Assembly: GCA_030390025.1 (NCBI GenBank)
Contig: JASTWF010000339.1
Location: forward strand, 1 to 64,000
DNA length: 64,000 nucleotides
Source of the DNA: Squalus acanthias
Lineage: Eukaryota
Direction of reading: 5' to 3'
Shown here in pieces: positions 19,481 to 62,703 of this stretch. Each line of letters begins with the position of its first letter. Positions within the stretch are counted from its first letter, which is position 1. Under the pieces are notes generated by a model that was not told the DNA's origin, did not search any database, and saw only the letters and a program-made list of their open reading frames with translations. Position numbers and translations under genes: made by a program.

Positions 19481-19953
19481 GGCGGCCTTCGAGACACACG
19501 ACAATGCAAAATCATCGAGCAGAAACTGATAGCCAAGTTCCGCACCCATGAGGACGGCCTCAATTGGGATCTCGGGTTCATGTCACGCTACAGAACGTGA
19601 CTCGACATCGTTGTCTGTCTTCCCCGTTTAAAAAAAAAAACAAAAAAAAAAGGTTAAAAACTCAACGACAGACAGCAGGATTTGAGACGTTGGACCCCCT
19701 GTGACCCATCTCATTGTCTTGGCTGTGCTCTGGTGTGTCTTTGATGTAATGCATCCCTGAAAGATTGTATCTCTGCAGTTTCTGTGTTTATATACTGTGC
19801 AATATTGTAGAATCCCACATTGTACCTTTACCTGACAAAGGGGCAGCAGCTCCGAAAGCTTGTTATTTTAAATAAATCTGTTGGACTATAACGTGGTGTT
19901 GTGCGACTTCTCATTTTTGTCCACCCCAGTCCAACACCGGCATCTCCGCATCA
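19481..19953 (+). mobile_element. 5'-truncated Penelope-like element (end of GIY-YIG + 3' terminal region)
   Basis: Encodes KIIEQKLIAKFRTHEDGL...GFMSRYRT*; ends ...GGCATCTCCGCATCA; TAATATAAACA is duplicated at 19470-19480 and 19954-19964. Confidence 0.92.
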
Positions 19954-22036
19954 TAATATAAACAGAGACAAGGTCTCGTGTAATATAAACAGAAACCGGG
20001 TCTATTGTAATATAAACAGAGAGAGGGTCTAGTGTAAAACAAACAGAGATAGGGTCCAGTCTTATATAAACAGAGACAGGATCTAGTGTAATATAAACGG
20101 AGACAGGTTCTCGTGTAATATAAACAGAGACGGGGTCTAGTGTAATATAAACAGAGACAGGTTCTCGAGTAATATAAACAGAGACAGGGTCTAGTGTCAA
20201 ATAAACAGAGACAGGGTCTAGTGTAATATAAACAGAGACTGGGTCTAGTGAAATATAAACAGAGACAGGGTCAGGTATAATATAAACAGAGAGAGAGAGA
20301 GAGTCTAGCGTATTATAAAGAGATACAGGGTCTAATGTAATATAAACAGAGGCAGTGTCTAGTGTAAAATTACCAGCGACGGGGTCTACTGTAATTCAAA
20401 CAGAGACAGGGTCTAGTGTAATATAAACAGAGACTGGGTCAAGTGTAATATAAACAGAGACAGGTTATCGTGTAATATAAACAGAGACAGGGTCTAGTGT
20501 AATATAAACAGAGACAGGGTCCAGTGCAGAATAAAAAGAGACAGGGTCTACTGTAATATAAACAGAGACAGGTCGAGTGCAATATAAACTGAGACAGGGC
20601 CCAGTGCAATATAAACAGAGACAGGGTCTAGTGCAATATCCACAGGGACAGGGTCTAGTGCAAAATAAACAGAGATGATGTGTAGTCTTATATAAAGAGA
20701 GACAGGGTCTAATGTAATATAAACAGTGACAGGTTATAGAGTAATTTAAACAGAGTAGGGTCTAGTGTAATATAAACAGAGACGGGGTCCAGTGTAATAT
20801 AATCAGAGATCGGGTCTAGTGTAATATAAACAGAGACATTTTCTAGTGCAATATAAACAGAGACAGTGTCTCGTGTAATACAAACAGAGACAGGGTCTTA
20901 TGTAATATCAACAGAGACAGGGTATAGTGCAATATAAACAGTGACAGGGTCGAGTGTAATATAAGCAGAGACAGCGTTTAGTGTAATATAAACAGAGACA
21001 GGGTCAGGTATAATATAAACAGAGAGAGAGAGAGTCTAGTGTAATATAAAGAGATACAGGGTCTAATGTAATATAATCAGAGGCAGTGTCTAGTGTAAAA
21101 TTAACAGCGACGGGGTCTAGTGTAATTCAAACAGAGATAGGGTCTAGTGTAATATAAACAGAGACTGGGTCTAGTGTAATATAAACAGAGACAGGTTCTC
21201 GTGTAATATAAACAGAGACAGGGTCTCGTGTAATATAAACAGAGACAGGGTCTTGAGTAATATAAAAAGAGAAATGGTCTAGTGTAATATAAACAGAGAC
21301 AGGGTCTAGTGTAAAATAAACAGAGACAGGGTCTAGTGTAATTAAACAGAGACAGGGTCCAGTGTAATATAAACAGAGACAGGGTCTAGTGTAATATAAA
21401 CAGAGACAGGTTCTCGTGTAATATAAACAGAGACCGGGTCTCGTGTAATATAAACAGTGATGGTGTCTAGTGTATTATAAACAGAGACAGGGTCTAGTGT
21501 AATATAAACAGAGACAGGTTCTCGTGTAATATAAACAGAGACAGGTTCTCGTGTAATATAAACAGAGACAGGGTCTAGTGTAATATAAACAGAAACAGTT
21601 CTGGTGCAGTAATAACTGAGACAGGGTCTAGTGTAATAAAAACAGAGACAGGGTCTAGTGTAATATAAACTGTTACAGGGTCTAGTGCAATATAAAAGAG
21701 ACAGGGTCGAGTGTAATACAAACAGAGACATGGTCTCGTGTAATAGAAAGTTAGACTGGGTCTAGTGTAATATAAACAGAGACAGGGCTGGTGTAATATA
21801 ACCGGAGACAGGGTCTCGTGAAATATAAACAGAAACCGGGTCTATTGTTATATAAACAGAGACAGGGTCTAGTGTAATATACACAGAGACAGGGACTAGT
21901 GTAATATCCACAGGGACAGGTTCGAGTGTAATATAAGCAGAGACAGCGTTTAGTGTAATATAAACAGAGACAGGTTCTAGTGTAATATTAACAGAGACAT
22001 GGTCTAGTATAATACTCCACATCATAGTATAATATA

Positions 22037-24873
22037 AGAAGTCGCACAACACCAGGTTATAGTCCAACAGATTTATTTAAAATTACAAGCTATTGGAGCT
22101 GTCGCTCCTTCTTCAGGTAGGGTAGCTGTGAGAGAATCTCCCAGAATTCACAATATAAACACAGAAAAAATGTATTCAAATCTTTCCCTACATCAAAGAC
22201 ACACTAAGAGCACAGCCAAGACAATGAGATGTGTCCCAGGGGGGCTGCATATCCTCTCCATTTGTATTAGGTTCTTGTGTTAGTTTTTTTTAAAAAAAAA
22301 CCTGGAAAGACCGGCCATGATGTCAAGTCACGTTCTGTATCGTGACATGAACCCGATATCGCGATTGAGGCCATCCTCATGAGTGCGGAACTTGGCTATC
22401 AGTTTCTGCTCTATGATTTTGCGCTGTCGTGTATCCCGAAGGCCGCCTTGGAGAACTCTTACCCGCAGATCCGAGGCTGAATGCCCCTGACTGCTGAAGT
22501 GTTCCCCGACTGGGAGGCAACCCTCCTGCCTGGCGATTGTTGCGCGGTGTCCGTTCATACGTTGTCTCAGTGTCTGCATGGTCTCGCCGATGTACCATGC
22601 TCTGGGGCATCCTTTCCTGCAACGTATGAGGTAGACAACGTTGGCCGAGTCACATGAGTATGTACCATGTACCTGGTGGGTAGTGTCCTCACGTGTGATG
22701 ATGGTATCTGTGTCCATGATCTGGCATGTCTTGCAGAGGTTGCTGTGGCAGGGTTGTGTGGTGTCGTGGTTGCTGTTCTCCTGAAAGATGGGTAATCTGC
22801 TGCGAACGATGGTACTTTTGAAGTTAGGCGGCTGCTTGAAGGCGAGTAGTGGAGGCGTGGGGATGGCCTTAGCAAGGTGTTCGCCGTCATCGATGACATG
22901 TTGAAGGCTGCGAAGAACATGGCGTAGTTTTTCCGCTCCGGGGAAGTACTGGACGACGTAGGGTACTCTGTTGGTTGTGTCCCGTGTTCATCTTCTGAGG
23001 AGGTCTATGCGGTTTTTCGCTGTGGCCCGTCGGAACTGTCGATCGACGAGTCGAGCGTCATATCCCGTTCTTACGAGGGCATCTTTCAGTGTCCGTAGGT
23101 GTCCATCGCGTTCCTCCTCGTCTGAGCAGATCCTGTGTATTCGCAGGGCTTGTCCATAGGGGATGGCTTCTTTAACGTGATTAGGGTGGAAGCTGGAGAA
23201 GTGGAGCATCGTGAGGTTGTCCGTGGGCTTGCGGTAGAGTGAAGTGCTGAGGCGTCCGTCTTTGATGGAGATTCGTGTGTCCAAGAATGAAACCGATTCT
23301 GAGGAGTAGTCCATGGTGAGTTTGATGGTGGGATGGAACCTGTTGATGCTATCGTGTAGTCCTTTCAGTGATCCTTCGCCGTGGGTCCAAAGGAAGAAGA
23401 TGTCGTCGATGTATCTGGTGTACAGCGTTGGTTGGAGGTCCTGTGCAGCGAAGAAGTCTTGCTCGAACTTGTGCATGAAGATGTTGGCGTATTGGGGTGC
23501 GAATTTGGTCCCCATGGCTGTTCCGTGTGTTTGGGTAAAAAAATGGTTGTCGAAGGTGAAGACATTGTGGTCAAGGATGAAGCGGATGAGTTGTAGGATG
23601 GCATCCGGAGATTGGCTGTTGTTGGTGTTGAGTACTGAGGCTGTCGCAGCGATGCCGTCATTGTGGGGGATATTGGTGTAGAGTGCCGATACGTCCATCG
23701 TGACGAGGAGTGTTCCTGGTTCAACTGGTCCATGGGTGCTGAGTTTCTGCAAGAAGTCTGTAGTGTCGCGACAGAAGCTGGGGGTTCCCTGTACGATGGG
23801 TTTCAGGATGCCCTCGACGTACCCAGAGAGGTTCTCACACAGGGTTCCGTTGCCTGATACGATAGGACGTCCGGGTGTGTTGGCTTTGTGTATCTTTGGG
23901 AGGCAGTAAAAGTCTCCTACGCGGGGAGTATGTGGGATGAGAGCGCGTAGGATGTTTTGAAGGTCTGGATCGAAGGTCTTGATCAGTCTATTGAGTTGGC
24001 GGGTGTGTTCTTTGGTCGGATCTGCGGGTAGCTGTCTGTAGTGTTCCTGGTTGTCCAGTTGTCGGTATGCTTCTTTGCAATGGTCCATTCTGTTCTGTAT
24101 GACAATGGCTCCTCCTTTGTCCGCTGGTTTGATGACGATGTTGCGGTTGGTCTTGAGAGCGTGGATGGCGTTGCGTTGTGCTCGGGTGACATTCTGGACT
24201 GTCTTGTGAGTACGGCTGATGAATCTGGCGTTGATGCATTTCCTGACAGCTTGAGCATACATGTCAAGCTTAGGGTTGCGACCCTCCGGAGGGGTCCAAT
24301 TTGACTCTTTCTTCCTCGGTTGTAGCACTGCGGTTCCCTCTGTCTGCTGTTCCGGATCATTGATTGTCTCATTAGGAATGTTGCTGACATCTTGGGATTT
24401 GTGGTAGTATTCCCAGATCCTCATTCTCCTGATGAATTCCTCTGTGTCTGCCGCGAGACCGATGGGGTCCATTTTTGTGGTGGGGCAGAACTTGAGCCCT
24501 AGGGCGAGAACTTCGATTTCGTCTGGTTGAAGGGTGTGGTCCGACAGGTTGACGATGGACTTCCCTGTGGTTGCAACCGTGGTACCGGGGGAGGCTTGGT
24601 TGCAGCTGGTGGTTACGCCGAGTTTCTCAAGCTTCCTGTTCTTGATGCGCATGTAGGCAGCGTAGTTCCGTTGCCTCGTCTGTTTGGCGGTGTCTCGTAG
24701 CTGGTCTGCTGTGTCCTGAGCACAGGCTGAGAGCATGGACTCTATCTTGGTTTCGAGGTTGCGACGTCTGCTGTAGAGCTGGTGTACGAGATGGTTGAGG
24801 AGTGTGCGAGAGGTACGACGGCAAAGTCTCTCAGCGTAGTCTGTGTTGTATGTCGACTTGAGTGGGTTCGTGA
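22037..24873 (-). mobile_element. Penelope-like element, inverted (left) arm; RT + GIY-YIG with one nonsense codon
   Basis: ORFs 22988..24736 and 22328..22717 are in the same frame, separated by a CGA>TGA change at 22988-22990; reverse complement of 24936-27795. Confidence 0.96.
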
Positions 24874-24874
24874 C

Positions 24875-27481
24875 ACAGACATCAAGTACCTGCAGAGATG
24901 CAAGAAAGCAGACAAGATTCCGAAAGGACTACAGATCACGAACCCACTCAAGTTGACATACAACACAGACTACGCTGAGAGACTTTGCCATCGTACCTCT
25001 CGCACACTCCTCAACCATCTCGTACACCAGCTCTACAGCAGACGTCGCAACCTCGAAACCAAGATAGAGTCCATGCTCTCAGCCTGTGCTCAGGACACAG
25101 CAGACCAGCTACGAGACACCGCCAAACAGACGAGGCAACGGAACTACGCTGCCTACATGCGCATCAAGAACAGGAAGCTTGAGAAACTCGGCGTAACCAC
25201 CAGCTGCAACCAAGCCTCCCCCGGTACCACGGTTGCAACCACAGGGAAGTCCATCGTCAACCTGTCGGACCACACCCTTCAACCAGACGAAATCGAAGTT
25301 CTCGCCCTAGGGCTCAAGTTCTGCCCCACCACCAAAATGGACCCCATCGGTCTCGCGGCGGACACAGAGGAATTCATCAGGAGAATGAGGATCCGGGAAT
25401 ACTACCACAAATCCCAAGATGTCAGCAACATTCCTAATGAGACAATCAATGATCCGGAACAGCAGACAGAGGGAACCGCAGTGCTACAACCGAGGAAGAA
25501 AGAGTCAAATTGGACCCCTCCGGAGGGTCGCAGCCCTAAACTTGACATGTATGCTCAAGCTGTCAGGAAATGCATCAACGCCAGATTCATCAGCCGTACT
25601 CACAAGACAGTCCAGAATGTCACCCGAGCACAACGCAACGCCATCCACGCTCTCAAGAGCAACCGCAACATCGTCATCAAACCAGCGGACAAAGGAGGAG
25701 CCATCGTCATACAGAACAGAATGGACTATTGCAAAGAAGCATACCGACAACGGGACAACCAGGAACACTACAGACAGCTACCCGCAGATCTGACCAAAGA
25801 ACACACCCGCCAACTCAATAGACTGATCAAGACCTTCGATCCAGACCTTCAAAACATCCTACGCGCTCTCATCCCACGTACTCCCCGCGTAGGAGACTTT
25901 TACTGCCTCCCAAAGATACACAAAGCCAACACACCCAGACGTCCTATCGTATCAGGCAACGGAACCCTGTGTGAGAACCTCTCTGGGTACGTCGAGGGCA
26001 TCCTGAAACCCATCGTACAGGGAACCCCCAGCTTCTGTCGCGACACTACAGACTTCTTGCAGAAACTCAGCACCCATGGACCAGTTGAACCAGGAACACT
26101 CCTCGTCACGATGGACGTATCGGCACTCTACACCAATATCCCCCACAATGACGGCATCGCTGCGACAGCCTCAGTACTCAACACCAACAACAGCCAATCT
26201 CCGGACGCCATCCTACAACTCATCCGCTTCATCCTTGACCACAATGTCTTCACCTTCGACAACCATTTTTTTACCCAAACACACGGAACAGCCATGGGGA
26301 CCAAATTCGCACCCCAATACGCCAACATCTTCATGCACAAGTTCGAGCAAGACTTCTTCGCTGCACAGCACCTCCAACCAATGCTGTACACCAGATACAT
26401 CGACGACATCTTCTTCCTTTGGACCCACGGCGAAGGATCACTGAAAGGACTACACGATAGCATCAACAGGTTCCATCCCACCATCAAACTCACCATGGAC
26501 TACTCCTCAGAATCGGTTTCATTCTTGGACACACGAATCTCCATCAAAGACGGACGCCTCAGCACTTCACTCTACCGCAAGCCCACGGATAACCTCACGA
26601 TGCTCCACTTCTCCAGCTTCCACCCTAACCACGTTAAAGAAGCCATCCCCTATGGACAAGCCCTGCGAATACACAGGATCTGCTCAGACGAGGAGGAACG
26701 CGATGGACACCTACGGACACTGAAAGACGCCCTCGTAAGAACGGGATATGACGCTCGACTCGTCGATCGACAGTTCCGACGGGCCACAGCGAAAAACCGC
26801 ATAGACCTCCTCAGAAGACGAACACGGGACACAACCAACAGAGTACCCTACGTCGTCCAGTACTTCCCCGGAGCGGAAAAACTACGCCATGTTCTTCGCA
26901 GCCTTCAACATGTCATCGATGACGGCGAACACCTTGCTAAGGCCATCCCCACGCCTCCACTACTCGCCTTCAAGCAGCCGCCTAACCTCAAAAGTACCAT
27001 CGTTCGCAGCAGATTACCCATCTTTCAGGAGAACAGCAACCACGACACCACACAACCCTGCCACAGCAACCTCTGCAAGACATGCCAGATCATGGACACA
27101 GATACCATCATCACACGTGAGGACACTACCCACCAGGTACATGGTACATACTCATGTGACTCGGCCAATGTTGTCTACCTGATATGTTGCAATAAAGGAT
27201 GCCCCAGAGCATGGTACATCGGCGAGACCATGCAGACACTGAGACAACGTATGAACGGACACCACGCAACAATCGCCAGGCAGGAGGGTTGCCTCCCAGT
27301 CGGGGAACACTTCAGCAGTCAGGGGCATTCAGCCTCGGATCTGCGGGTAAGCGTTCTCCAAAGCGGCCTTTGGGATACACGACAGCGCAAAATCATAGAG
27401 CAGAAACTGATAGCCAAGTTCTGCACTCATGAGGATGGCCTCAATCGCGATATCAGGTTCATGTCACGATACAGAACGTGA
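24875..27481 (+). CDS. PLE polyprotein: reverse transcriptase + GIY-YIG endonuclease (5'-truncated, open frame)
   Basis: IKPADKGG, YCLPKIHK, RPIVS, TMDVSALYTNI, GTAMG..FAP.YANIFM, RYIDDIF, FLD, Cys-containing linker (PCHSNLCKTC), VVYLI.C..C...WYIGET...LRQRMNGH. The first ~31 aa of ORF 24782..27481 derive from the inverted arm and are not native. Confidence 0.93.
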   Translation, partial: TDIKYLQRCKKADKIPKGLQITNPLKLTYNTDYAERLCHRTSRTLLNHLVHQLYSRRRNLETKIESMLSACAQDTADQLRDTAKQTRQRNYAAYMRIKNRKLEKLGVTTSCNQASPGTTVATTGKSIVNLSDHTLQPDEIEVLALGLKFCPTTKMDPIGLAADTEEFIRRMRIREYYHKSQDVSNIPNETINDPEQQTEGTAVLQPRKKESNWTPPEGRSPKLDMYAQAVRKCINARFISRTHKTVQNVTRAQRNAIHALKSNRNIVIKPADKGGAIVIQNRMDYCKEAYRQRDNQEHYRQLPADLTKEHTRQLNRLIKTFDPDLQNILRALIPRTPRVGDFYCLPKIHKANTPRRPIVSGNGTLCENLSGYVEGILKPIVQGTPSFCRDTTDFLQKLSTHGPVEPGTLLVTMDVSALYTNIPHNDGIAATASVLNTNNSQSPDAILQLIRFILDHNVFTFDNHFFTQTHGTAMGTKFAPQYANIFMHKFEQDFFAAQHLQPMLYTRYIDDIFFLWTHGEGSLKGLHDSINRFHPTIKLTMDYSSESVSFLDTRISIKDGRLSTSLYRKPTDNLTMLHFSSFHPNHVKEAIPYGQALRIHRICSDEEERDGHLRTLKDALVRTGYDARLVDRQFRRATAKNRIDLLRRRTRDTTNRVPYVVQYFPGAEKLRHVLRSLQHVIDDGEHLAKAIPTPPLLAFKQPPNLKSTIVRSRLPIFQENSNHDTTQPCHSNLCKTCQIMDTDTIITREDTTHQVHGTYSCDSANVVYLICCNKGCPRAWYIGETMQTLRQRMNGHHATIARQEGCLPVGEHFSSQGHSASDLRVSVLQSGLWDTRQRKIIEQKLIAKFCTHEDGLNRDIRFMSRYRT

Positions 27482-27712
27482 CTTGACATCATGGCCGGTC
27501 TTTCCAGGTTTAAAAAAAAAAAAACTAACACAAGAACCTAACACAAATGGAGAGGATATGCAGCCAGCAGGTGTTTTGACACGTTGGACCCCCTGGGACA
27601 CATCTCATTGTCTTGGCTGTGCTCTTAGTGTGTCTTTGATGTAGGGAAAGATTTCAATACATTTTTTCTGTGTTTATATTGTGAATTCTGGGAGATTCTC
27701 TCACAGCTACCC

Positions 27713-27748
27713 TACCTGAAGAAGGAGCGACAGTTCCGAAAGCTTGTA
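27713..27748 (+). ncRNA. Minimal type-I hammerhead ribozyme motif in the PLE 3' terminal region
   Basis: TAC-CTGAAGA-AGGAGCGACAGTTCC-GAAA-GCTT-GTA: core CUGANGA/GAAA/UH, stem II, palindromic AAGCUU stem III, stem I TAC/GTA. Confidence 0.75.
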
Positions 27749-30700
27749 ATTTTAAATAAATCTGTTGGACTATAACCTGGTGTTGTGCGACTTCTCATTT
27801 TTGTCCACCCCAGTCCAACGCCGGCATCTCCACATCATAGTATAATATAAACAGAGACAGGGTCAGGTATAACATAAACAGAGAAAGAGTCTAGTGTAAT
27901 ATAAAGAGATACAGGGTCTAATGTAATATAAAGAGAGGCTGTCTCTAGTGTAAAATAAACAGCGACGGGGTCTAGTGTAATTCAAACAGAGACAGGGTCT
28001 AGTGAAATATAAACAGAGACTGGGTCAAGTGTAAAATAAACAAAGACATGGTCTAGTGTAATATAAACAGAGACAGGGTCTCGTGTAATATAAACAGAAA
28101 CCGGCTCTATTGTAATATAAACAGCGACAGGGTCTAGTGTACTATCAACATTGACAGGGGCTAGTGTATATCAAAAGAGACAGGTTCTAGTGTAATATAA
28201 ACAGAGACAGGGTCGAGAGTAATATAAACAGAGACGGGGTCTAGTGTAAAATAAACATAGACCGGGTCTAGTATAATATAAACTGAGACATGGTCGAGTG
28301 TAATATAACCAGAGACATTGTCCAGTGTAATATAAGCAGAGACAGGGTCTAGAGTAATATAAACAGAGACAGGGTCTGGTGTAATATAAACAGTGCAAGG
28401 GTGTAATGTAATATAAACAGCGACAGGGTCTAGTATAATACAAACAGAGACAGGGTCTAGTGTTATATAAACTGAGTTAGGGTCTCGTTTAATATAAACA
28501 GAGACAGGGTCAGGTATAATATAAACAGAGAAAAAGTCTAGTGTAATATAAAGAGATACAGGGTCTTAGGTAATATAAACATAGACAGTGTGCAGTGTAT
28601 AATAAACAGAGACGGGGTCTAGTGTAATTCAAACAGAGACAGGGTCTAGTGTAATATAAACAGAGACAGGGTCTCGTGTAGTATAAACAGAAACCGGCTC
28701 TAGTGTAAAATAAACAGAGACAGGGTCTCGTGTAATATAACCAGTGACAGGGACCAGTGTAATATCAACAGAGACAGGTTCTAGTGTAATTTAAACAGAG
28801 ACAGGGTCTAGTGTAATATAAACAGAGACTGGGTCAAGTGTAATATAAACAGAGACAGGGCTGGTTTAATATAAACAGAGACAGGGTCTCGTGTAATATA
28901 AACAGAAACCGGGTCCATTATAATATAAACAGAAACAGGGTCTAGTGTAACATAAACAGAGACAGGGTCTCATGTAATATAAACAGTGACGGGGTCCAGT
29001 GTAAAATAAACAGAGACAGTGTCGAGTATAATATAAACTGAGACAGGGACCAGTGCAATATAAAAAGAGACAGGGTCTAGTGTAATATAAACAGAAACAG
29101 TTCTATTGCAGTAATAACTGTTACAGGGTCTAGTGTAATATAAAAGAGACAGGGTCTAGTTCAATATAAACAGAAGCCGAGTCTAGTGCAATATAAACAG
29201 AAGCAGGGTCTAGTGTAATATAACCAGAGACAGGTTAGAGTGTAAAATAAACAGAGACAGGGTCTAGTGTAATATAAACAGATACAGTTCTGGTGCAGTA
29301 ATAACTGAGACAGGGTCGAGTGTAACTTAAACAGAGACGGGGTCTAGTGTAATATAAACTGTTACAGGGTCTAGTGTAATATAAAAGAAACAGGGTCTAG
29401 TTTAATATAAACAGAAGCCGCGTCTAGTGCAATATAAACAGAAGCAGGTTCCAGTGTAATATAAACAGAGACAGGGTCTGGTGTAATATAAACAGAGACA
29501 GGGTCTTTTGTAATATAAAGAGAGACAGGGTCTAGTGTAATATAAACAGAGACAGGGACTTGTGTAATATAAACAGAGACAGCGTCTAGTGTAATATAAA
29601 CAGAGACAGGGTCTAGTGTAATATAAACTGAGACAGGGTCTAGCGTAATATAAACAGAGACAGGGTCAGGTGTGAAATAAACAGAGAAAGAGTCTAGTGT
29701 AATATAAAGAGATTCAGGGTCTAGTGTAATATAAACAGAGACAGGGTCTAGTGTAATATAAACAGAGACAGCGTCCAGTGTAATATAAACAGAGACAGGG
29801 TCTAGTGTAATATAAACAGAGACATGGTCTGGTGTAATATAAACAGAGACTGGGTCAAGTGTAAAATAAACAGAGACAGGGTCTAGTGTAATATAAACAG
29901 AGACAGGGTCTAGTGTAATATAAACAGAGACAGGGTCTAGTGTAATACAAACAGAGACAGGATCTAGTGTGATGTAAACAGGGACAGGGTGTTCTGCCAT
30001 AATAAGTGTGACTGGAGCTAATGTAATAAACAGAGATGCGTTCTAATATAAAATACACAGCGACATGGTCCAGTACAGTAATAACTGAGATGGTGCCTGC
30101 GCATAGTAGAATTTAAACTGACCCATGATTGATTGCGGTGATAATTGAGACAGGGCTGAGTGAAATTTGCACAAAGTATGGTCCAGTGCAATATTAAATG
30201 AAACAGGGCCTAGTGTCATCTAAACAGAGACACTATCTAGTGCAGTCAGAACTGAGAAAGTGTCCAGTGCAATTTTAACAGAGACAGTGTCTAGTGCAGT
30301 AATAAATGAGACATGGTCTGGTATAATATAAACAGAGTCGGAGTCTAGTGTAATATAAACAGAGACAGGGTCTGGTGTAATATAAACAGAGACAGGGTCC
30401 AGTGTAATATAAACAGAGACAGGGTCTAGTGTAATATAAACAGAGACAGGGTCCAGTACAATATAAACAGAGACAGTGTCTAGTGCAGTAATAAATGAGA
30501 CATGGTCTGGTATAATATAAACAGAGTCGGGGTCTAGTGTAATATAAACAGAGGCAAGGTTTTCACCATTAGAAGTGAGACTGGAGCTAATGTACAAATC
30601 AAAGACGCGGTCTAATGGAATATACACAACAACAGTGTCCAGTGCAATAATAATTAAGGCAGGGTCTAGTGCAATATAAAAAGAGACAGGGTGCAGTGCA

Positions 30701-31272
30701 ATGATAATTCAGACAAGGCCGCGTGTAATATAAACGGAGACAGGGTCTAGTGTAATATAAACAGAGACAGGGTCTAGTGTAATATAAATAGAGCTAAGGT
30801 CTACTGTAATATAAACAGAGACAGGGCCTAGTGTAATATAAACAGAGACAGGGTCTAGTGTAATATAAACAGAGACAGGGCCTAGTGTAATATAAACAGA
30901 GACAGGGTCTAGTGTAATATAAACAGAGACAGGGTCTAGTGTAATATAAACAGAGACAGGGCCTAGTGTAATATAAACAGAGAAAGGGTATGGTGTAATA
31001 TAAACAGAGACAGGGTCTAGTGTAATATAAACAGAGACAGGGTCTAGTGTAACATAATCAGAGACAGGGTCTAGTGTAATATAACCGGAGACAGGGTCTA
31101 GTGTAATATAAACAGAGACAGGGTCTAGTGTAATATAAAAAGAGACAGGGTCTAGTGTAATATAAACAGAGACAGGGCCCAGTGTAATATAAACAGAGAC
31201 AGGGTCTAATGTAATATAAACAGAGACAGGGCCTAGTGTAATATAAACAGAGACAGGATCTAGTGTAATATA

Positions 31273-32033
31273 GTGGAGATGCCGGCGTTGGACTGGGGTG
31301 GACAAAAATGAGAAGTCGCACAACACCAGGTTATAGTCCAACAGATTTATTTAATTTTACAAGCTTTTGGAGCTGTTCGCTCCTTCCTCAGGTAGGTTAG
31401 CAGTGAGAGAATCTCCCAGAATTCACAATTTAAACACAGACAAAATCTATTCAAATCTTTCCCTACATCAAAGACACACTAAGAGCACAGCCAAGACAAT
31501 GAGATGTGTCCCAGGGGGTCCAACGTGTCAAACCACCTGCTGGCTGCATATCCTGTCAATTTGTGTTGGTTCTTGTGTTAGTCCTTTTAAAAAAAAAACA
31601 AACACCTGGGAAGACCGGCCATGATGTCAAGTCACATTCTGTATCGTGACATGAACCCGATATCGCGATTGAGGCCATCCTCATGAGTGCGGAACTTGGC
31701 TACGTGACTTGACATCATGGCCGGTCTTCCCAGGTGTTTGTTTTTTTTTTTAAAAAGACTAACACAAGAACCAACACAAATTGACAGGATATGCAGCCAG
31801 CAGGTGGTTTGACACGTTGGACCCCCCTGGGACACATCTCATTGTCTTGGCTGTGCTCTTAGTGTGTCTTTGATGTAGGGAAAGATTTGAATAGATTTTG
31901 TCTGTGTTTAAATTGTGAATTCTGGGAGATTCTCTCACTGCTAACCTACCTGAGGAAGGAGCGAACAGCTCCGAAAGCTTGTAAAATTAAATAAATCTGT
32001 TGGACTATAACCTGGTGTTGTGCAACTTCTCAT
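31273..32033. mobile_element. Non-autonomous fold-back Penelope derivative (~760 bp)
   Basis: Arms ~31308-31635 and 31703-32033 are inverted copies of the PLE 3' region; the extra tail is only on the left; TAGTGTAATATA is duplicated at 31261-31272 and 32034-32045. Confidence 0.93.
31947..31983 (+). ncRNA. Minimal hammerhead ribozyme motif
   Basis: TAC-CTGAGGA-AGGAGCGAACAGCTCC-GAAA-GCTT-GTA; the mirror copy at 31358-31394 has GAAA>AAAA. Confidence 0.75.
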
Positions 32034-32594
32034 TAGTGTAATATAAACAGAGAGAGGGCCTAGTGTAATATAAACAGAGACAGGGTCTAGCGTAATATAA
32101 ACAGAGACAGGGCCCAGTGTAATATAAACAGAGACAGGGTCTAATGTAATATAAACAGAGTCAGGGTCTAGTGTAATATAAACAGAGACAGGGTCTAATG
32201 TAATATAAACAGAGTCAGAGTCTAGTGTAATATAAACAGAGACAGGGACTAGTGAAATATTAACTGAGGCAGGGTCTAGTGTAATATAAACAGAGACAGG
32301 GTCCAGTGTAATTTAAAAACATACAGACTCTGCACTCTGTCAATTAATCCCCTCACACTTCATGTCCCTGCTCTCAGACTGCGGGGTTCACGGTTTATTT
32401 TCTATCCAATCATTCTCGAAATATTCTGATCATTGAAGGCTGTCACATTCCATTTGTGCAATGCCTGTTTAATTGTTTTTTGTAATGTTACTATTGTTGG
32501 GACTGAAATGGTTAACTTGGTCTGTTTGTTTAACGACTGTAATTAATGTCAGTTCCCAGGGAATCTGCTCGTCTCTCTGGAGTTTTTACTCTAA

Positions 32595-35450: not shown

Positions 35451-35875
35451 AACATAGAAACATAGAATCTAGGAGCAGGAGTAGGCCATTCGACCCGTCG
35501 AGCCTGCTCCACCATTCAATACGATCATGGCTGATCATCCAAATCCAGTACCCCGTCCCTGCTCTAATCCCCACAGTACACATATCCCACCCTACCCCCG
35601 TAACCCCACGTATTTAATTCCCCCTAACATATCCCATCCTATCCCCATAACCCCACATATTTAATCCCCCCCTAACACTAAGGTTCAATTTATCATAGCC
35701 AAATCAACCTAACCCGCACATTTTTGGACTGTGGGAGGAAACCGGAGCACCCAGAGGAAACCCACGCAGACACGGGGAGAATGTGCAAACTCCACACAGA
35801 CAGTCACCCGAGGTCAGATTCGAACCCGGGTCCCTGGCGCTGTGAGGCACCAGTGCTAACCACTATGCCACCGTG
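35451..35875 (-). mobile_element. Full-length HE1-type V-SINE in the GPCR intron
   Basis: Minus strand begins CACGGTGGCATAGTGGTTAGCACTG (A box) ... GGTTCGAATC (B box), then the V-domain and a CR1-like 3' tail with (TTCTATGT)n. Confidence 0.93.
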
Positions 35876-35971
35876 TAGTAGCAAAGCTTCTAATTTCAGA
35901 TCGAACTCCACCGGTTTGCTGCTTCTGTTGGAGCCTGATGTATAATTTCTGTTTTGTAACCTTCCTTACAG

Positions 35972-36870
35972 TGAACTTGGTGACGATTGTGATCCTGTCT
36001 CGGGGAAGGTGCGGCCTCTCCAAATGTGTCTCCCGTTACCTGGTGTCCATGGCAGCGGCGGATCTACTGGTCATTATCATTGACGTGATACTAAGACAGA
36101 TTCCCGTCGCTTACGCTGCACAATTCCTCTTTGTACGGAATATTAAAGTGTGTAATATCCACGCTGTCCTGCTGTATGCAGTCACAGACTGTTCTGTCTG
36201 GTTCACAGTCGCTTTCACCTTTGATCGATTTGTGGCCATTTGTTGCCAGAAGCTGAAAACAAAATATTGCACCGAGAAAACGGCGGCTGTGGTTCTAGGA
36301 ACAGTGACTGTGCTGTTTTGTTTGCAAAATATTTTTTGGTACTTTATGTACACAAGTGAATATTTACTGTTTAACATGCCTTGGTTTTGCAATGTATTAG
36401 ACAGTGTTTTCTTTTCACGGGTATGGGCAACAATAGAATCTCTTCATTTTATTTTAACCCCATTTATTCCTTTTGTTCTGATTCTGCTGCTCAATGCTTT
36501 AACCATCAGACACATTTTATTGTCGAGCAGAGTCCGCAGGAGACTCCGGGCCCACAGCAGTGGGGAGAGTCCCAGTGACCCAGAGATGGAGAAGCGAAAG
36601 AAATCCATCATTTTACTGTTTGTTATATCCGGGAATTTTATCCTGTTATGGGTGATGTTTTTGGTGAATTCCATATACTTGCGCATAATCGCAATGTATA
36701 ATGACTCGAACATTAGCACTTCGCATATCCTACAAGAAATTGGATTCATACTTCAACTGTTGAGTTCTTGCACAAACACTTGTATTTATGCCGTGACCCA
36801 GACTAAATTCAGAGAGGAGTTGAAGTCTTTGGTGAAATTTCCCATCGCTCTAATTGCTAAATTAATGTAA
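35972..36870 (+). CDS. GPR139/GPR142-like orphan class A GPCR, coding exon 2 (spliced product 331 aa)
   Basis: Acceptor CTTCCTTACAG|; hydrophobic segments for the rest of TM1 through TM7; MAAADL (TM2), AFTFDRFVAIC (DRY-like), Cys in ECL2, SSCTNTCIY (NPxxY-like), basic helix 8. Confidence 0.92.
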
Positions 36871-37821: not shown

Positions 37822-39517
37822 GATCCCGTTCCTTTCTCCTGGTGACTCCTGGAAGGTGTCCAATAAGGTAGAGTAGCACAGCACTCACTCCTTTTAAGAG
37901 AAGTCCTCAGAGAATTTCCAGAATAAATGTTGATGGAGTGTTGGTGAAGTCTTGACGAAGTTTCCTAGAAAGTCTCCCGATGAGTTTCAAAAGTCCTCTT
38001 CAAAGCTCCAGCAGCAAGTGGACAGTAAAAGGCGATGTCCCTTTAAACAGCGCTCCAAATCTTCAGCAGCTACGCGTTTACTCCCAATCAGCTGGTCGCT
38101 GTTAGGAGAGGGCGTCAGGTCCAGCGCCGGCCACCAGAATGCCACGAAGCATCGTTAATGAGCGCTAGCAGGCAAGTTAAGTGGCAATTAGCTGCTTAAT
38201 GAACCTCCGGCGGCCGTTCATAGCGCAAGCTTCAACTCCTTGACCAAGATGGCGTCTTGCGTTAAACGGGGGCTAAACCGGTGTTTCAGCTTAAGACCCC
38301 AGTCTGGCCACCTTGGAGGCTCTTCAGCGCCTAAGGTATCTGGGGAACATCGCCGCCTCCCCACCCCTCCATCCCTTCTTATGAACTTTTGAATAGCTCA
38401 TGATGTCGTTCCGCCCTTCCGACGGGGGTGGCGCTGTAGCGCCTCAGCTTTGCGTTTCCCGACTCTGCAGCTCATAATTTAGAGAGATTCCGCTGCTCCA
38501 ACCCATGTCTCTGACTCCCAAACCGTAGAAAATGTTGCTACTTGGCCTCGACTCCCCATGTGCAACACCGCGGGAGATCATGTGGTAATAATATAAAATC
38601 ACAGTGCTAGGTATAAAAACGGCAGAATATGTCACTTTAAAATGGGACGTGGACAACATCTGTCCACCCTGGTCCGATTAACCCCGCCCTCTAACCCTGC
38701 TGCACCCGAAGACCACACCTGGTCTTAACTCCCCTATCTAACACTACAGGAGGTTGACTGTTATTCCCTACAACCAATATTTCCCAAGCAAGTACTCAGT
38801 CCCATTTTCCAGGCCTCCGTTGATTTTGGCTGTCTGATAACGTGTGCTGTACAACCTCGCATCCGTTCTGGGAAAACGCTGTCAACTGGCTGTACCTGGA
38901 ATCCTAACATGATGCCCCGTAGTTCTAGATTCCCCTACTAGAGAGAAGAGTTGTGTTATGTTATCTGTGTCTTCCTTAATTAGTCTACCATTTCGATCAA
39001 ACCGTCACACAATCTCATTTCGACACATTTTAGTACAAATTCATTCGGTCTCTGCACTCAGTCCATTTATCCGTCTTCTCACGCTGGTGATTTCTCGCTG
39101 GACTTTCTCCAAGGTGAGTATTTCCTTGCTAAGGTTTGTGACCCACACTGAAAACAACATGATCTAATAATAGCAACATTGTTTTTAATTACATGTAACT
39201 GCTTCATAGCAATCAGCAAGTACAAGAGAAATATACGCAGCAGTCACACAGAACCTGACCCAGAAACACAGTATCGGACCAAGTAGATGGAGCTTTACAC
39301 GGTTTCTAACGCGTGTTGTTCCTTCCCTGGGAGTGTTTGATAACATGAGAACATACCAAATATGAGCAGGAGTAGGACATACGGCCCCTCGAGCCTGCTC
39401 CGCCATTCAATAAGATCATGGCTGATCTTCAACCTCAAATCCACTTTCCCGCCCCATCCCCATATCCCTTGATTCCATTTGAGTCCAAAAATCTATCGAT
39501 CTCAGCCTTGAATAAAC

Positions 39518-40018
39518 GCAAAATCATCGAGCAGAAACTGATAGCCAAGTTCCGCACTCATGAGGACGGCCTCAACCGGGATCTTGGTTTCATGTCACGA
39601 TATATGACGTAGAGTCATCCAGACTCGAGTCGTCGTTGGCTTGTTCACAGATGTGATTTCCAGTTAAAAAAAAGTAAAATTTTAAAGTTTATCGTTTTCC
39701 ATACCGACTGCAACTTTTGACACATTAGACCCCCTGTAACCCCACCTCATTGTCTCAGTTGTATCTTGCTATGTCTTTGATGTGGTGCCTTCCTGGCTGA
39801 CCTGATTGTTTATCTGCCGAGGTGTGACAAAAGGCAGTCAGGAAGATTAAATGTAGTCGTCTGCCATTGTACGTTACACATGCATTGTTCTCTATCTATA
39901 TATGCTTTGTCGATTTGTATTCCTTTACTTCACCTGACGAAGGAGCAGCCGCTCCGAAAGCTTGTGATTTCAAATAAAACTGTTGGACTATAACCTGGTG
40001 TTGTGCGACTTCTCACTT
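39518..40018 (+). mobile_element. 5'-truncated Penelope-like element nested in the CR1 3' end
   Basis: RKIIEQKLIAKFRTHEDGLNRDLGFMSRY; TTGAATAAAC is duplicated at 39508-39517 and 40019-40028. Confidence 0.93.
39930..39967 (+). ncRNA. Minimal hammerhead ribozyme motif
   Basis: TCAC-CTGACGA-AGGAGCAGCCGCTCC-GAAA-GCTT-GTGA. Confidence 0.78.
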
Positions 40019-43000
40019 TTGAATAAACTCAACAACTCAGCATCCACAGCCCTCTGGGCGAGAGAATTCAGAATATTGACAACCCTCTGAGTGAAGAAAT
40101 TTCTCCTCCTCTCAGTCTTAAATGGCCGACCCCTTATCCTGAGGGTATGCCCCTAGTTCTAGACACTCCAGCCAGGGGAAACAACCTCTCAGCATCTACC
40201 CTGTCAATCCCCTTCAGAATCTTGTATGTTTCAATGAGATCATCTCTCATTCTTCTAAACTCCAGAGAGTATAGGCCCATTCTACACAATCTCTCATCAT
40301 AGGACAGCCCTCTCATCCCAGGAATCAATCTAGGGAACCTTCGTTGCATCCCCTATAAAGGATGCATATCCTTCTTTACATACGGAGACTAAAACTGTAC
40401 ACCGTACTTCAGGTGTGGTCTCATCAAAGCCCTGTACAATTGTAGCAAGACTTGCTTACTGTTGTACTCCAAACCCCCTTGCAATAAATGCCAACATACC
40501 ATTTGCCTTCCTAATTGAATGCTGTACCTGCATGTTAACTTCCTCTGTTTCGTGTACAAGGACTGCCAAATCCCTCTGAACACCAACATTTAATAGTTTC
40601 TCACTCGTTAAAAAATATTTTCTTTTCAGATTCTTCCTACCAAAGAGCATTGGTTAAAGGACAGAAAACAAAGACTAGGAGTAAACTTGTAATTTTCAGG
40701 TTGAAAGGCTGTTACTGGTACAAGTATTAGTGTTGGGCCCTCAGCCAGTTACAATCTAAATTAATGACTTAGATGAAGGGATTATTACCCTGCTAATTAT
40801 ATCCTCAAAAGGTTGTAATAAATTATTCAAACACGATTTCCCTTTCATGAAACCATGTTGACTCTGCCCAATCATGTTATGATTTTCTCAGTGCCCTGTT
40901 ACCACTTCCTTAACAATGGATTGCAGCATCTTCCCGATGACTGATGTCAGGCTAACTGGCCAGTATTTCCCTGTTTTCTCTTTCCCACCTTTCTGGAGTA
41001 GCGGTGTTATATTTTCTATCTTTCATTCCACCGGGACAGTTCCAGAATCTAAGGAATTTTGGAAAATTGCTACCAATGCATCCATTATCTCTGCAGACAC
41101 CTCTTTGAGGATCTCAGGATGTGGGCCATCAGGTACAGGGGATTTGTCGGATTTTAGTCCCATTAATTTATCCAGTACTTTCTCTTTCCTAATATTAATT
41201 ACTTTAAGTTCCTCACTCTCATTAGACGATTGGCTCCCCATTATCTCTGGTCTGTTTTTAGTCTCTGTTACGGTGAAGACAGATACAAAATATTTTTAAC
41301 GTCTTTGACATTTCCTGATGCCCCATTATAAGTTCTACAGTCTCAGCCTCTAAGGGACCCACGTTTACTTTCGCTACTCTCTTCCTTTTTATATACTTGT
41401 AGAAGCTCTTAAAATCTGTTTCTATTTTCTCCTTCTTTATCACTATTTTGGCCATCCTTTGCTGGTTTTTGAAACTCTCCCAATCCTCAGGCTTACTATT
41501 CTTCTTGGCAACGTTATAAACCTCTTTTAATCTAATACTATTCTTATCCTCATTAATTAGTCATGGATGGATCACTTTTTCCGTGATGTTTTTATATCTC
41601 AATGAAATGTATATTTAATGAGAATTATGAAATATTTCTTTAAATGTTCACCTTTGCATATCTACCGCCATACCTTTTAATCTATTTTCCCAGTCTACCT
41701 TAGTTAACTCGCCACTTATACCTTTGTAATTGGCTTTAGTTAAGTTTAAGATTTTTGTTTCGGACTTAAGTACGTCACTCTTGAATTCAACGTGGAATTC
41801 TATTATGTTATGGTCACTCTTCCCCAGATTAGTAATTACCCCTGTCTCATTACACAAGACACGATCTAAAATAACCTCTTCCCTGGTTGCTTCCACGATG
41901 AATTGTTCTAGGAAAATCTCTCTCGTGCGTTCCATTAACTCTTCTTCAAAACTACTTTTGCCAATTTGATTTGTCGAGTCTATATGAAGATTAAGGTCCC
42001 CCACGATTATTGCATTACCTTTGTTAGAAGCTTCTCTTATTTCTTGATGAATACTCTGTCCAACAGTATAGATACTGTTCGGGTGGCCTACAAACTACTC
42101 CCACCAATGTTTTCTGTTCTTTGTTACTTCTTATTTCCACCCATACTGATTCTACTTCCTGGTCTTCTGAGCCAAGATCCTTCCACATTACTGTCCTTAT
42201 GTCATCCTTTATTATCAGTGCTACCCGCCCTCATTTTCCATTTTGTTTGTCTTTTCGGAATGTCAAGTACCCTGGAATATTATTTCCCAATGTTGGTTAA
42301 CCTGCAATCACGTCTTTGTAATGGCGATTAGATCAAACCCATTTATCACTATTTGTGTCATTAATTCCTCTATCTTGTTACGAATGCTTCGTGCATTCAG
42401 ATAAAGCATTTTAATATTAACCTTTTACCTTTTTCCCCTGATTTGACCGTATTCACTGATGCACTATTACTGTTAAACTCTCTGTCCCTCCCTGTCACAA
42501 TCTGCTTATCTTTATCCAATCGCTACACTGCTCTATGGACTTGAATTTTCTCTTTAGATTTTGTACGTTTCCCCTTACCTGATTTCTCCCCTTTTAATTT
42601 AAAGCCCTATCTACAGCCTCAGTTTTTCAATTCGCCGGAACATTGGTCACAGCCCGGTTTAAGTGGCTACTGTCCAAATGGAACAGCCCCCTCTTTCCCC
42701 AGTACTGTCGCGAGTGACCAATGAATCGAAACCCCTTCCTCCCATACCACTCTTTGAGCCACGCATTTAAACCTCTAATCTGTTTCATCCTGTGCCAATT
42801 TGCATGTGACTCTGGTAACAATCCAGAGATTATTAGCTTTAAGGTTCTGCTTTTTAATTTGGATCCTAGATACTCAAACTTCCTCAGCAGAACCTCATTT
42901 CTAGATCTACCGATGTCGTTGGATCCGACGTGGAACACGACAACTGGATCCTCCCTCTACCACTTCAAGTGCTTCTCCAACCGCGTGGAGAAGTTCTTAA

Positions 43001-44064: not shown

Positions 44065-44386
44065 CAAAGTCTCCAGGTAACTCTATCCCCGCCCTCACTG
44101 ATGCCTCGCAATGTCTGCACCTCAGGGTCCAGCTCAACAACTCTGAGCTGAAGTTCCTCGAGATGCAGACATTTACCGCAGATCTGGTTGTCCGGGATCG
44201 GGATGCTCCCACAAACTCCCACATGCTGCAGTTGCGGTACACCTCCTGCACTGCCATCCCTATCAAACCTTGTTTTATTTATTTAATTAATTAAAATGTA
44301 TGAATTTAATCAAGTTAGCTTATAGTTTTTAGTATCATCACGAATTACTTGATTTAGTTTAAGTTATAGGTAAATTAAATTAAATA

Positions 44387-44597
44387 TGATGTGGAGATGC
44401 CGGTGTTGGACTGGGGTGGACAAATGTGAGAAGTCGCACAACACCAGGTTATAGTCCAACAGCTTTATTTGAAATCACAAGCTTTCGGAGCGCTGCTCCT
44501 TCGTCTGACTTCACCTGACGAAGGAGCAGCGCTCCGAAAGCTTGTGATTTCAAATAAAGCTGTTGGACTATAACCTGGTGTTGTGCGACATCTCACA
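44387..44597. mobile_element. Non-autonomous fold-back Penelope derivative (~210 bp)
   Basis: Inverted arms of the PLE terminus around a ~12-nt loop; tail only on the left; TTAAATTAAATA is duplicated at 44375-44386 and 44598-44609. Confidence 0.92.
44511..44547 (+). ncRNA. Minimal hammerhead ribozyme motif
   Basis: TCAC-CTGACGA-AGGAGCAGCGCTCC-GAAA-GCTT-GTGA. Confidence 0.78.
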
Positions 44598-45489
44598 TTA
44601 AATTAAATAGTCACCGGTTACACGAACAAGTATTGGAGGGAAAAGCAGCCCCTCCTTCCTCCTTTGCACCGAACTCCCACTCTCACCAAATTCCCACGAT
44701 TACACTCTGTTTATGACGCACTCCGTTTATGACAACACTGTCCGTCCATTCGTTGCCTCAGCAGATAAATGATACATTTCTACACGTTTTCTCGCCACAC
44801 CCAAGTTACAAGTGCTGACGCAGCTTCCTGCTCACAGTAATTACCCCCTATTCAGGCAAACAATTAAAGCTGATTGACTGGTAACTGTTAACAGCCACTG
44901 ACAGGCAGTTTCTGTTAACGCTTGACTAACTTGCAGTTTATTTTAAAAGTTTTTAAAGTTCTAAGTTAAATTCCAAAAGTCAAAATAAATTTCAGATTGA
45001 GACGCATTACTTACCAGAGTTCAACCTTTCCCGAATTCCCCTCATTAAACTCTGTTTAAAATGCACTCCGTTCGTGCCCACTCTCATCTCTTTTTGGCAA
45101 TCTATTTGAAAGAAATGGGTGATTGAAAAACATGATATACGGTTGCATCCAGCAGGAAGAGAACCATAAACTTAAAGTATATAAGACAGATGCCATGGTA
45201 TTTTTGGTTAGAAAGAAAGAAATAAGGAGAGAAAGAGGAATTCTAAATCCCGGGGCTAAGAACAGGTTTGGCGAAGCCATTTCACGATGGTTTATTAAAT
45301 CAACGCACAATAAATTTTGGATGGAGGGCTGACCTGTTCGGTTCTGTATGTTTGGTTAGGGTGTTTTAAGATAAATCCTTTGTCGGTAATAAATGAACTG
45401 AATTATAACATCTGCCACTGTCTCTAGTTGTACGAACCGATTTAAAGGATGAGGAAATAATTATCCAACAGACGTGCTTGGCACTGCCC

Positions 45490-50400: not shown

Positions 50401-51157
50401 GGAATGTTGTCTTTTATTGCTAGGGGGATAGATTATAAAAACAGGGAGGTATTGCTACAGTTATATAAGGTATTGGTGAGACCGCATCTGGAATACTGCA
50501 TACAGTTTTGGTGTCCATACTTAAGAAAAGACATACTTGCTCTCGAGGCAGTACAAAGAAGGTTCACTCGGTTAATCCCCGGGATGAGGGGGTGGACATA
50601 TGAGGAGAGGTTGAGTAGATTGGGACTCTACTCATTGGAGTTCAGAAGAATGAGAGGCAATCTTATTGAAACATATAAGATTGTGAAGGGGCTTGATCGG
50701 GTGGATGCGGTAAGGATGTTCCCAAGGATGGGTGAAACTAGAACTAGGGGGCATAATCTTAGAATAAGGGGCTGCTCTTTCAAAACTGAGATGAGGAGAA
50801 ACTTCTTCACTCAGAGGGTAGTGGGTCTGTGGAATTTGCTGCCCCAGGAAGCTGTGGAAGCTACATCATTAAATAAATTTAAAACAGAAATAGACAGTTT
50901 CCTAGAAGTAAAGGGAATTAGGGGTTACGGGGAGCGGGCAGGAAATTGGACATGAGGCTGAGTTCGGATCGGTCGAGGCCCTGTGGGTGGCATAGCGGGC
51001 CCAGGGGCTGAGTGGCCGGGTCCTGCTCCTACTTCTTGTGTTCTTTAGATTTGAGGTGAGGATCAGATCAGCCATGATCTTATTGAATGGCGGAGCAGGC
51101 TCGAAGGGCCGATTGGCCTACTCCTGCTCCTATTTCTTATGTTCTTATGTTCTTATG
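47488..51157 (+). mobile_element. CR1 LINE: partial ORF1 (SGNH-esterase-like) + ORF2 (APE 48012..48920, RT 49138..50955)
   Basis: CCLPGARVKDI...[29 protein letters not shown]; intact RT motifs; frame disrupted near 48915-48965; (TTATGTTC)n tail. Confidence 0.95.
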
Positions 51158-51184
51158 ATCCACTAAGGTCGCCACTAAAGACGC

Positions 51185-53978: not shown

Positions 53979-54027
53979 GTACATATATTTCCGATTGTGT
54001 TATTGGTGCTGTACTGGGATCCGTATT

Positions 54028-55130: not shown

Positions 55131-55133
55131 ATA

Positions 55134-55875: not shown

Positions 55876-55929
55876 ACAGTATATCATTTGTGAATTTAAT
55901 AAGAGCTGTTTCAGCGCCATTATAATGGG

Positions 55930-57360: not shown

Positions 57361-57600
57361 TTAACATTGACTAAGTTCCACAAATGATTAAATAATACTC
57401 GACTGAATTCAATTAATTAATTTAGAGCAATGACATTATTTGGTGGTGAGTTGCTGACAGAAATATAAACAATGCAACAAGTGGCCGTATTATAAACGAA
57501 AATGTATTTTCCCCAAACTCCCACAGCGCAGTTTTTCTGCTCTCAATCTCTGACTATCACTGGTTCAGCTCGGCTCCCTCTTCCATATTCGCTGCTGCTC

Positions 57601-62205: not shown

Positions 62206-62433
62206 GACATTTCTACAGTGAACACTGCTGACCCCGAGAGTTCCTTCTGCTCCTAACACCTGGCAATGTTCCGGACTGTTCCCGTCTTCATTAATTGAGT
62301 GAGGCTGCATAACTGATGGCAGGTCTCGTAACTGAATCACAAAGTTTTAATGATGCAGAGATGCCGGTGTTGGACTGGGGTGGACAAAAGTGAGAAGTCG
62401 CACCAGGTTATAGTCCAACAGTTTTATTTGAAA

Positions 62434-62471
62434 TCACAAGCTTTCGGAGCTGCTGCCCCTTCGTCAGGTGA
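62434..62471 (-). ncRNA. Minimal hammerhead ribozyme motif (minus strand)
   Basis: Reverse complement reads TCAC-CTGACGA-AGGGGCAGCAGCTCC-GAAA-GCTT-GTGA. Confidence 0.75.
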
Positions 62472-62665
62472 AGTGAAGGAATACGAATCGGCAAAGCATA
62501 TATAGACAGAGAACAATGCCTGTGTAGCGTACAATCTCAGACAACTACAGTTAATGTGTGTGATGAAAGGCAGTCAGAACGATTAACTGTAGTCGTCTGA
62601 GATTGTACGCTACACAGGCATTGTTCTCTGTCTATATATGCTTTGCCGATTCGTATTCCTTCACT

Positions 62666-62703
62666 TCACCTGACGAAGGGGCAGCAGCTCCGAAAGCTTG
62701 TGA
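62666..62703 (+). ncRNA. Minimal hammerhead ribozyme motif
   Basis: TCAC-CTGACGA-AGGGGCAGCAGCTCC-GAAA-GCTT-GTGA. Confidence 0.75.

Follow-up and report, generated by a model that had tools for sequence, protein, structure and literature searches.

Do hammerhead ribozymes carried in huge numbers by a retroelement still cut in living cells, and if so, at which point of the element's RNA? The role of the hammerheads found in Penelope-like elements (PLEs) is still called unclear (PMC8557442). The question is raised by a 64,000-nucleotide stretch of the Squalus acanthias genome (contig JASTWF010000339.1, positions 1 to 64,000; hereafter the window), in which an initial annotation described a family of minimal hammerheads at PLE ends, with stem covariation, and proposed that they process the element RNA. 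As first described the finding is ordinary; what the present analysis adds are genome-wide footprints at the predicted cut and at the likely RNA start. We consider it probable, at roughly 60%, that these motifs cleave the element RNA in its 5′ leader, with low efficiency and as predicted two-RNA dimers, a reading taken wholly from genomic copies.

Minimal hammerheads in a Penelope-like element

Searching both strands of the window for the core pattern CTGANGAAG-N10-20-GAAAGCTT gave six matches, against a mean of 0.00 and a maximum of 0 in 100 shuffles. The intact cores start at 27716, 31950, 39934, 44515 and 62670 on the forward strand, with one on the reverse strand at 62438-62467; the positions given in the initial annotation are those of stem I, 3-4 nt 5′ of C3. 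All nine motifs that it named are present, with the three damaged cores at 19828 (CTGACAA), 22084-22119 (AATA) and 31358-31394 (AAAA) as described, and a tenth, 5′-truncated core that it overlooked lies on the reverse strand at ~44475-44505. Positions relative to the predicted cut are numbered so that +1 is the G directly 3′ of GAAAGCTT. The PLE features of the window are as follows (ORF, open reading frame; RT, reverse transcriptase).

19482..19954, forward: single 5′-truncated PLE arm with a long tail, within a 27-bp satellite; its hammerhead is damaged (CTGACAA), with the cut predicted before 19862
22031..24873, reverse: left arm, short-ended, of a PLE insertion built head to head; its ORF is interrupted by a stop; its hammerhead is damaged (AATA) at 22083-22119, with the cut predicted next to 22086
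24872..27481, forward: PLE ORF without its first 23 codons, with RT (PF00078, E 1.7e-8), DKG, YIDD, a CX4CX2C linker and a VVY..YIG endonuclease motif (by eye)
27713..27748, forward: intact minimal hammerhead of the TAC subfamily, with a stem I of 3 bp and the cut predicted before 27746
27746..27838, forward: 93-nt leader/tail 3′ of the cut, with AATAAA at +10..+15, a short end site at ~+52..+59 and a long end at CATCAT, from which tandem units take the first two letters, A and T, of the ORF's ATG
31273..32034, both strands: head-to-head pair, long arm reverse and short arm forward; damaged core 31358-31394 (reverse, AAAA), intact core 31950-31980 (forward)
39517..40021, forward: single CAC-subfamily arm, flanked by a target duplication of ~10 bp; the core at 39934-39963 is intact, with the cut predicted before 39964
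39897..39927, forward: TATATAT at 39897 and initiator-like A at 39927, spacing 30 nt, repeated at 62633/62663; likely RNA polymerase II start
44385..44599, both strands: 215-bp hairpin insertion with target duplication; intact core 44515-44543 on the forward arm, which begins at 44508 preceded by non-native TG; reverse arm with a long tail and truncated core
62350..62753, both strands: head-to-head pair with target duplication; intact cores 62438-62467 (reverse) and 62670-62699 (forward)

All of the motifs are found towards the 3′ ends of arms that belong to a single Penelope-like family. The insertion at 22031-27838 consists of two head-to-head arms, 98% complementary over 2.6 kb, and without the first 23 codons it is not autonomous. 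Pfam detected the RT and returned no GIY-YIG match at E≤10 in the same ORF, the VVY..YIG motif having been read by eye in the translation. The linker between RT and endonuclease (EN), CHSNLCKTC, fits the CX2-5CxxC form described at this place for the Neptune clade and common to Nematis (PMC8557442). The element is probably a PLE with RT and a GIY-YIG-type EN, and its linker is of the Neptune type. The layout of EN+ PLEs is seen: a partial-tandem pseudo-long terminal repeat (pLTR), an inverted 5′-truncated copy, a tail and a target duplication. An exact 23-nt direct copy of this insertion's right junction (the last 10 nt of tail plus target) precedes its left end, at 22015-22037, which suggests a template jump during integration. 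Three of the insertions (19482, 22031 and 31273) lie in a 27-bp satellite (15640-32317), each adjoining its TAATATA stretch, and another was met in the same satellite at a fetched locus (L139); a bias towards AT-rich targets is possible.

Exact patterns of 33-40 nt, counted across the whole 3.7-Gb genome, give 10,767 copies of the TAC subfamily and 54,396 of the CAC subfamily, at least 65,000 in total. For the fold we used 129 motifs from the first loci and 366 motifs overall, the latter amounting to 129 distinct haplotypes; 38 haplotypes were seen at least twice, and leaving out six with junction-altered ends or core indels or substitutions gave 32 recurrent haplotypes. The topology is that of type I, with a short helix I and a helix II closed by G10.1-C11.1. 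An extra unpaired A stands between 9 and 10.1 in every one of the 129 motifs, and GCTT follows GAAA directly in 121 of them, palindromic at 15.2-16.2 and without a loop III. N7 takes all four bases in this set; over the recurrent haplotypes the catalytic core, C3-U4-G5-A6-N7-G8-A9 with G12-A13-A14-A15.1 and U16.1-H17, is invariant apart from N7, H17 and, in one, U4. Stem II is held while loop II varies in both sets, which also bear out the free N7, the extra A and the constrained stem II that had been read from the window. Stem cells are paired in 99.3% of cases across the recurrent haplotypes, compared with 24-51% in slid controls, and the RNAfold minimum-energy fold includes stems I and II in four of four short windows, with modest z-scores (-0.85 to -2.25). 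By their sequence, then, the motifs are minimal type I hammerheads with a palindromic remnant of helix III, in the pLTR of a PLE, as the initial annotation held and of a kind already published (PMC4209133).

Its claim of stem covariation survives in part. The swap between CAC/GTG and TAC/GTA in stem I is real (C-G in 219, T-A in 113, T-G in 12 and other in 22 of the 366 motifs), but as a change at one pair, produced by a single subfamily split, it is weak evidence of covariation; two-sided changes occur in two of nine stem pairs, a count matched or exceeded in 28 of 500 shuffles. In the window's TAC copies stem I has only 3 bp, with C-A at pair 4. The covariance-model search that had been proposed, run as an Rfam scan of the window, returned no hammerhead family at E≤5 for this motif without helix III; the Rfam microRNA hits in the window are just the fold-back pairs, and were set aside.

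Three further observations concern the motif itself. Loop II is often palindromic in its own right (AGCGCT, ATCGAT; L256:1531-1574, L001:1503-1541), and could give a second RNA-RNA pairing site. One sub-lineage has C at H17, with many of its copies bearing A at +1, so that the pair next to the cut is broken (L321, L323, L324, L336, L341, L344, L345), and several copies carry a U4C core change (L068, L355, L375, L382, L384).

Where template RNAs begin and end

If the motif marked the end of the element, copies should stop close to it. It does stand near the 3′ ends of the arms, but it is not the template's 3′ end: among 650 distinct arms, taken from loci chosen by searches rather than at random, 324 end at +50..+62 and 278 at +90..+97 (602/650), the +52 peak partly reflecting the TAC reference used. 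Twenty arbitrary 10-kb stretches yielded only 4 arms, too few for an unbiased end profile. At 25 of 30 loci found via the ORF start the tail runs directly into the ATG at +92, with an intact core upstream in 17 of the 25; the tail ends are therefore distinct from the cut site, and the ribozyme is in the 5′ leader of the next unit. Far from being an end marker, in tandem units it lies 91 nt 5′ of the ATG and ~36 nt behind the likely transcription start.

The case for that start comes from the CAC subfamily, where an initiator-like TCACTTC has its A 30 nt 3′ of a TATATAT and 36-37 nt before the cut. Genome-wide, the initiator A is preceded by a non-native G (G+ACTTCACC) 3,857 times and by A 577 times, compared with 33,086 times by the native C or T; at the base after it, 3,959 arms have a non-native letter immediately 5′, G in ~22 of the 100 listed. 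Altogether 8,393 of 41,479 CAC arms (20%) start at these two bases, in single-mismatch counts that include some mutation. All 30 of the inspected G-preceded starts are true junctions. The extra G is not templated in 14 of these 30 by script (11 by eye), and the extra A in 10 of 20 (8 by eye), which scales genome-wide to ~1,400 non-templated starts with G against 230 with A. In L1, an extra G at full-length 5′ junctions is credited to the cap (PMC11702581). The pile-up is likely to reflect a capped RNA start directed by the TATA box and initiator, in which case the ribozyme would fill the first 40 nt of the RNA.

At the other end, poly(A) follows GGACTAT, 13-15 nt 3′ of AATAAA, in only five copies genome-wide: two resume at +1 (one with an extra G), one resumes further downstream and two end there. 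AATAAA is used, at least rarely, and of the proposed processing this much holds, together with a scissile bond that maps after GCUU. Insertion primed from poly(A) as the normal route is rejected on the same five copies.

How many templates contribute to a copy? Of 216 head-to-head pairs, 189 combine a long arm with a short one. The loop II class differs between the two arms in 9 of 30 CAC pairs, and at least some pairs therefore used two templates. Since the class agrees in the other 21, and a difference at +16 is seen in only 3 of 30 (47% expected at random), both templates usually came from one source. The inner hairpin junction is identical in 4 of 30 loci (L398, L399, L405, L407), hinting at a preferred join or at re-amplification of one hairpin.

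5′ ends at the predicted cut

Most copies contain an uncut or re-joined site. For the remainder, we counted across the genome those arms that match from a given base onward and have two non-native bases before it (a double mismatch). In the CAC subfamily 137 arms start at -8, 91 at -4, 127 at -1, 385 at +1, 295 at +2, 172 at +3 and 118 at +8; in the TAC subfamily the counts are 12 at -8, 9 at -4, 29 at -3, 72 at +1 and 45 at +2. Starts at +1, ~0.7% of arms in both subfamilies, are thus 2-8 times as frequent as those at neighbouring positions, with +2 close behind. From each of nine sets we then classified the 29-30 loci listed first, and set aside internal mutations along with any junction showing 2 or more nt of microhomology. 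The filtered CAC estimates for -8, -4, -1, +1, +2, +3 and +8 are 55, 64, 76, 231 (156-298), 128, 126 and 31, and the filtered TAC estimate is 62 at +1 against 22 at -3, where five loci are the mirror image of junctions in which both arms lie at +1.

The two arms of a pair often end here together. When the focal arm starts at -1, +1 or +2 its partner ends at +1/+2 in 23 of 77 pairs, compared with none of 37 when it starts at -4 or -8 and 1 of 23 when it starts at +3; a nominal Fisher p of 4e-5 overstates this contrast, since mirror duplicates are included and the controls were picked after looking. The base before the 72 TAC starts at +1, judged by eye, is A in 63 and G in 6, and with A so common there is no cap-like G at this position. 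The two joins of poly(A) to +1, for their part, imply a template end there. Taken together, these are indirect marks of the kind to be expected were a minority of templates to end physically at the scissile bond, as read from genomic junctions rather than RNA ends. Contigs from sequencing runs that may be RNA had a depth in step with genomic copy number and were set aside.

A proposed mechanism and its alternatives

We posit the following sequence of events. A capped RNA would start 36-37 nt before the cut, behind the TATA box; two such RNAs, usually from one source, would pair through AGCU and so complete helix III; both ends of the target would serve to prime RT, at ~+55 and ~+93, with copying mostly from uncut RNA; and the two complementary DNAs (cDNAs) would be joined head to head. 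Occasionally the dimer would be cut after GCUU, removing the capped 36-37 nt, and cDNAs made on such a template would run off at +1 and leave the footprint. Published minimal hammerheads are built to act as dimers and cut weakly (PMC4209133), and in cofolding the AAGCUU duplex is worth -4.3 kcal/mol.

Several observations weigh against this reading. The +1 excess is modest, with +2 and +3 raised as well; the profiles cover seven (CAC) and five (TAC) positions under different mismatch filters; and stem I microhomology accounts for 10 of 30 CAC +1 junctions. The 23 partner ends at +1/+2 include mirror duplicates of the same event, and partners also seem to end there in 5 of 16 pairs when the focal start is +8, mostly with ambiguity from microhomology. 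At the capped start, the extra G is templated by partner or target in 16 of 30 cases, and the TAC subfamily gave no start pile-up at the three positions tested (77, 24 and 42 matches). The two-RNA pairing step is only weakly backed by cofolding: a structure other than the hammerhead dimer has the lowest energy in three of four cofolds, stem II exchange being favoured in CAC copies. Sub-lineages with U4C, or with a C-A mismatch at the pair adjoining the cut, have spread. In Anolis, RNA reads with an end at the cut were absent, and cleavage could be dispensed with in vitro (PMC11167929).

Could the motif then be silent, or nearly so, in vivo, and kept as a fold for RNA pairing or protein binding, the +1 excess being a product of RT stalls at the three-way junction together with stem I microhomology? 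This would account for the microhomology junctions and the raised +2 and +3 just mentioned, and for the more than 98% of counted arms that pass the site intact; CUU, moreover, is a poor triplet. Among published minimal hammerheads, monomers were uncleaved and dimers cleaved weakly (PMC4209133). Yet a purely structural role would leave no need for the catalytic residues to stay fixed, as they do while N7 and H17 vary, the +1 excess persists once microhomology junctions are removed, and the poly(A)-to-+1 joins imply a template end; the Anolis PLE hammerhead, for its part, cuts once its protein is added (PMC11167929). We regard a silent motif as unlikely.

More improbable still is that the main job of the ribozyme is to cut both repeats of the transcript and so release a unit-length RNA that is ligated into a circle (the model of PMC4209133), uncut-looking copies being made across the re-joined site and +1 starts coming from cut RNA that was not yet closed. 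Such a circle would leave no scar, the TAC subfamily has no start pile-up at the three positions tested, and the 17 of 25 ORF-start loci with an intact core, often with more upstream sequence before the ATG, would be more-than-unit copies. Against this, arms that go no further than the likely capped start make up ~20% of the CAC subfamily, which makes linear uncut RNA a common template; tandem read-through, or transfer between two repeats, explains the long copies equally well; and a test for crossover at the cut was not significant, with 7 of 9 loop-discordant pairs sharing +16 (56% expected). Pure snap-back self-copying as the sole source of inverted pairs is rejected by the nine of 30 pairs that differ in loop class.

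Returning to low-efficiency cleavage in the leader, we can tentatively extend it to the element as a whole, while doubting that every part of the extension would hold. The pLTR would resemble a retroviral U3-R-U5, with a capped start 3 nt before stem I and polyadenylation 29 nt past the cut; RNAs would pair through the ribozyme palindrome, and an RT dimer priming at +55/+93, near their 5′ ends, would make strong-stop cDNAs that became the tens of thousands of mini copies. Long copies would come about only by jumping to the 3′ repeat or via a circle made by the ribozyme, and the +1 starts would be a genome-wide record of cleavage in vivo.

Relation to known elements

The motif family and the inverted-plus-tail layout are already published, taking PMC4209133, PMC11167929, bioRxiv 10.64898/2026.07.22.740005, PMC3846280, PMC8557442, PMC6155905 and PMC11702581 together. 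The Squalus motifs share with the minimal hammerheads of metazoan PLEs (PMC4209133) the CUGANGA/GAAA core, the short helix I, the unpaired base between 9 and 10.1, G10.1-C11.1, the palindromic 15.2-16.2 without loop III and the pLTR location, as well as thousands of scattered copies and opposite-strand pairs 100-700 bp apart. They differ in a helix II of 5 bp, as against 7-8 bp in Schistosoma, and in number, at least 65,000 exact-pattern copies standing against ~9,000 in Xenopus, counted by different methods. In the portion of that paper available we found no cartilaginous fish, though a supplement may list shark motifs, and no in vivo evidence for minimal hammerheads is reported there.

Another close parallel is PAc of Anolis carolinensis, a Poseidon PLE (Frangieh et al. 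2024, PMC11167929), whose protein cuts and extends both target strands, starts reverse transcription at two internal sites and activates its hammerhead, insertion proceeding without need of cleavage. Both elements carry their hammerhead where pLTR and ORF meet and, on the reading proposed here, both have two internal sites of RT start, 30-40 nt apart, that give rise to the tail, cutting and extension of both target strands, and uncut RNA as the main template. In PAc, however, the ATG lies within the ribozyme and RT starts within the ORF, whereas here the cut precedes the ATG by 91 nt and the long end coincides with that ATG; no RNA ends were seen at the PAc cut, while genomic 5′ ends are in excess here; and the CX4CX2C linker is a further difference of the Squalus element.

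With EN+ Neptune-clade PLEs (PMC3846280, PMC8557442) the element shares head-to-head 5′-truncated arms, a one-sided tail (30-40 bp there), partial tandems, target duplications of 9-16 bp, a zinc-finger-like RT-EN linker and, as in the pLTR of Adineta, a TATA box with a TCACT initiator-like motif. These papers favour self-priming for the inverted junction, which leaves unexplained the nine of 30 pairs differing in loop II class. Non-LTR retrozymes (bioRxiv 10.64898/2026.07.22.740005; one chondrichthyan sampled there) are likewise PLE-derived, non-autonomous and equipped with type I hammerheads, but they form head-to-tail tandem arrays; the window holds no such array, its copies being single arms or head-to-head pairs with fixed tail ends. 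Our literature search, with most subscription papers outside its coverage, found no report of genomic 5′ ends at a PLE hammerhead cut or of a cap-G start.

Other features of the window

Besides PLEs, the window contains satellites, zinc-finger repeats and ORFs of CR1/L2-type long interspersed nuclear elements (LINEs). Two near-complete endonuclease-RT LINE ORFs, each split once, lie at 4304-7269 (reverse) and 47949-50955 (forward), a C2H2 zinc-finger array with an 84-bp period at 9335-10213, and an intronless 7tm_1 receptor ORF of 336 aa, stop to stop, at 35860-36870.

Implications

With an exact predicted start, cut and poly(A) site and two RT start sites in hand, cleavage in vivo becomes testable, as does the choice between read-through, strand transfer and circular templates, and the sub-lineage with C at H17 and A at +1 provides a natural control for the +1 footprint. 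More broadly, the more than 65,000 young copies of this element mean that the genome itself records where template RNAs began and ended, and the small excess of copies starting at +1 likely records occasional cutting in living cells.

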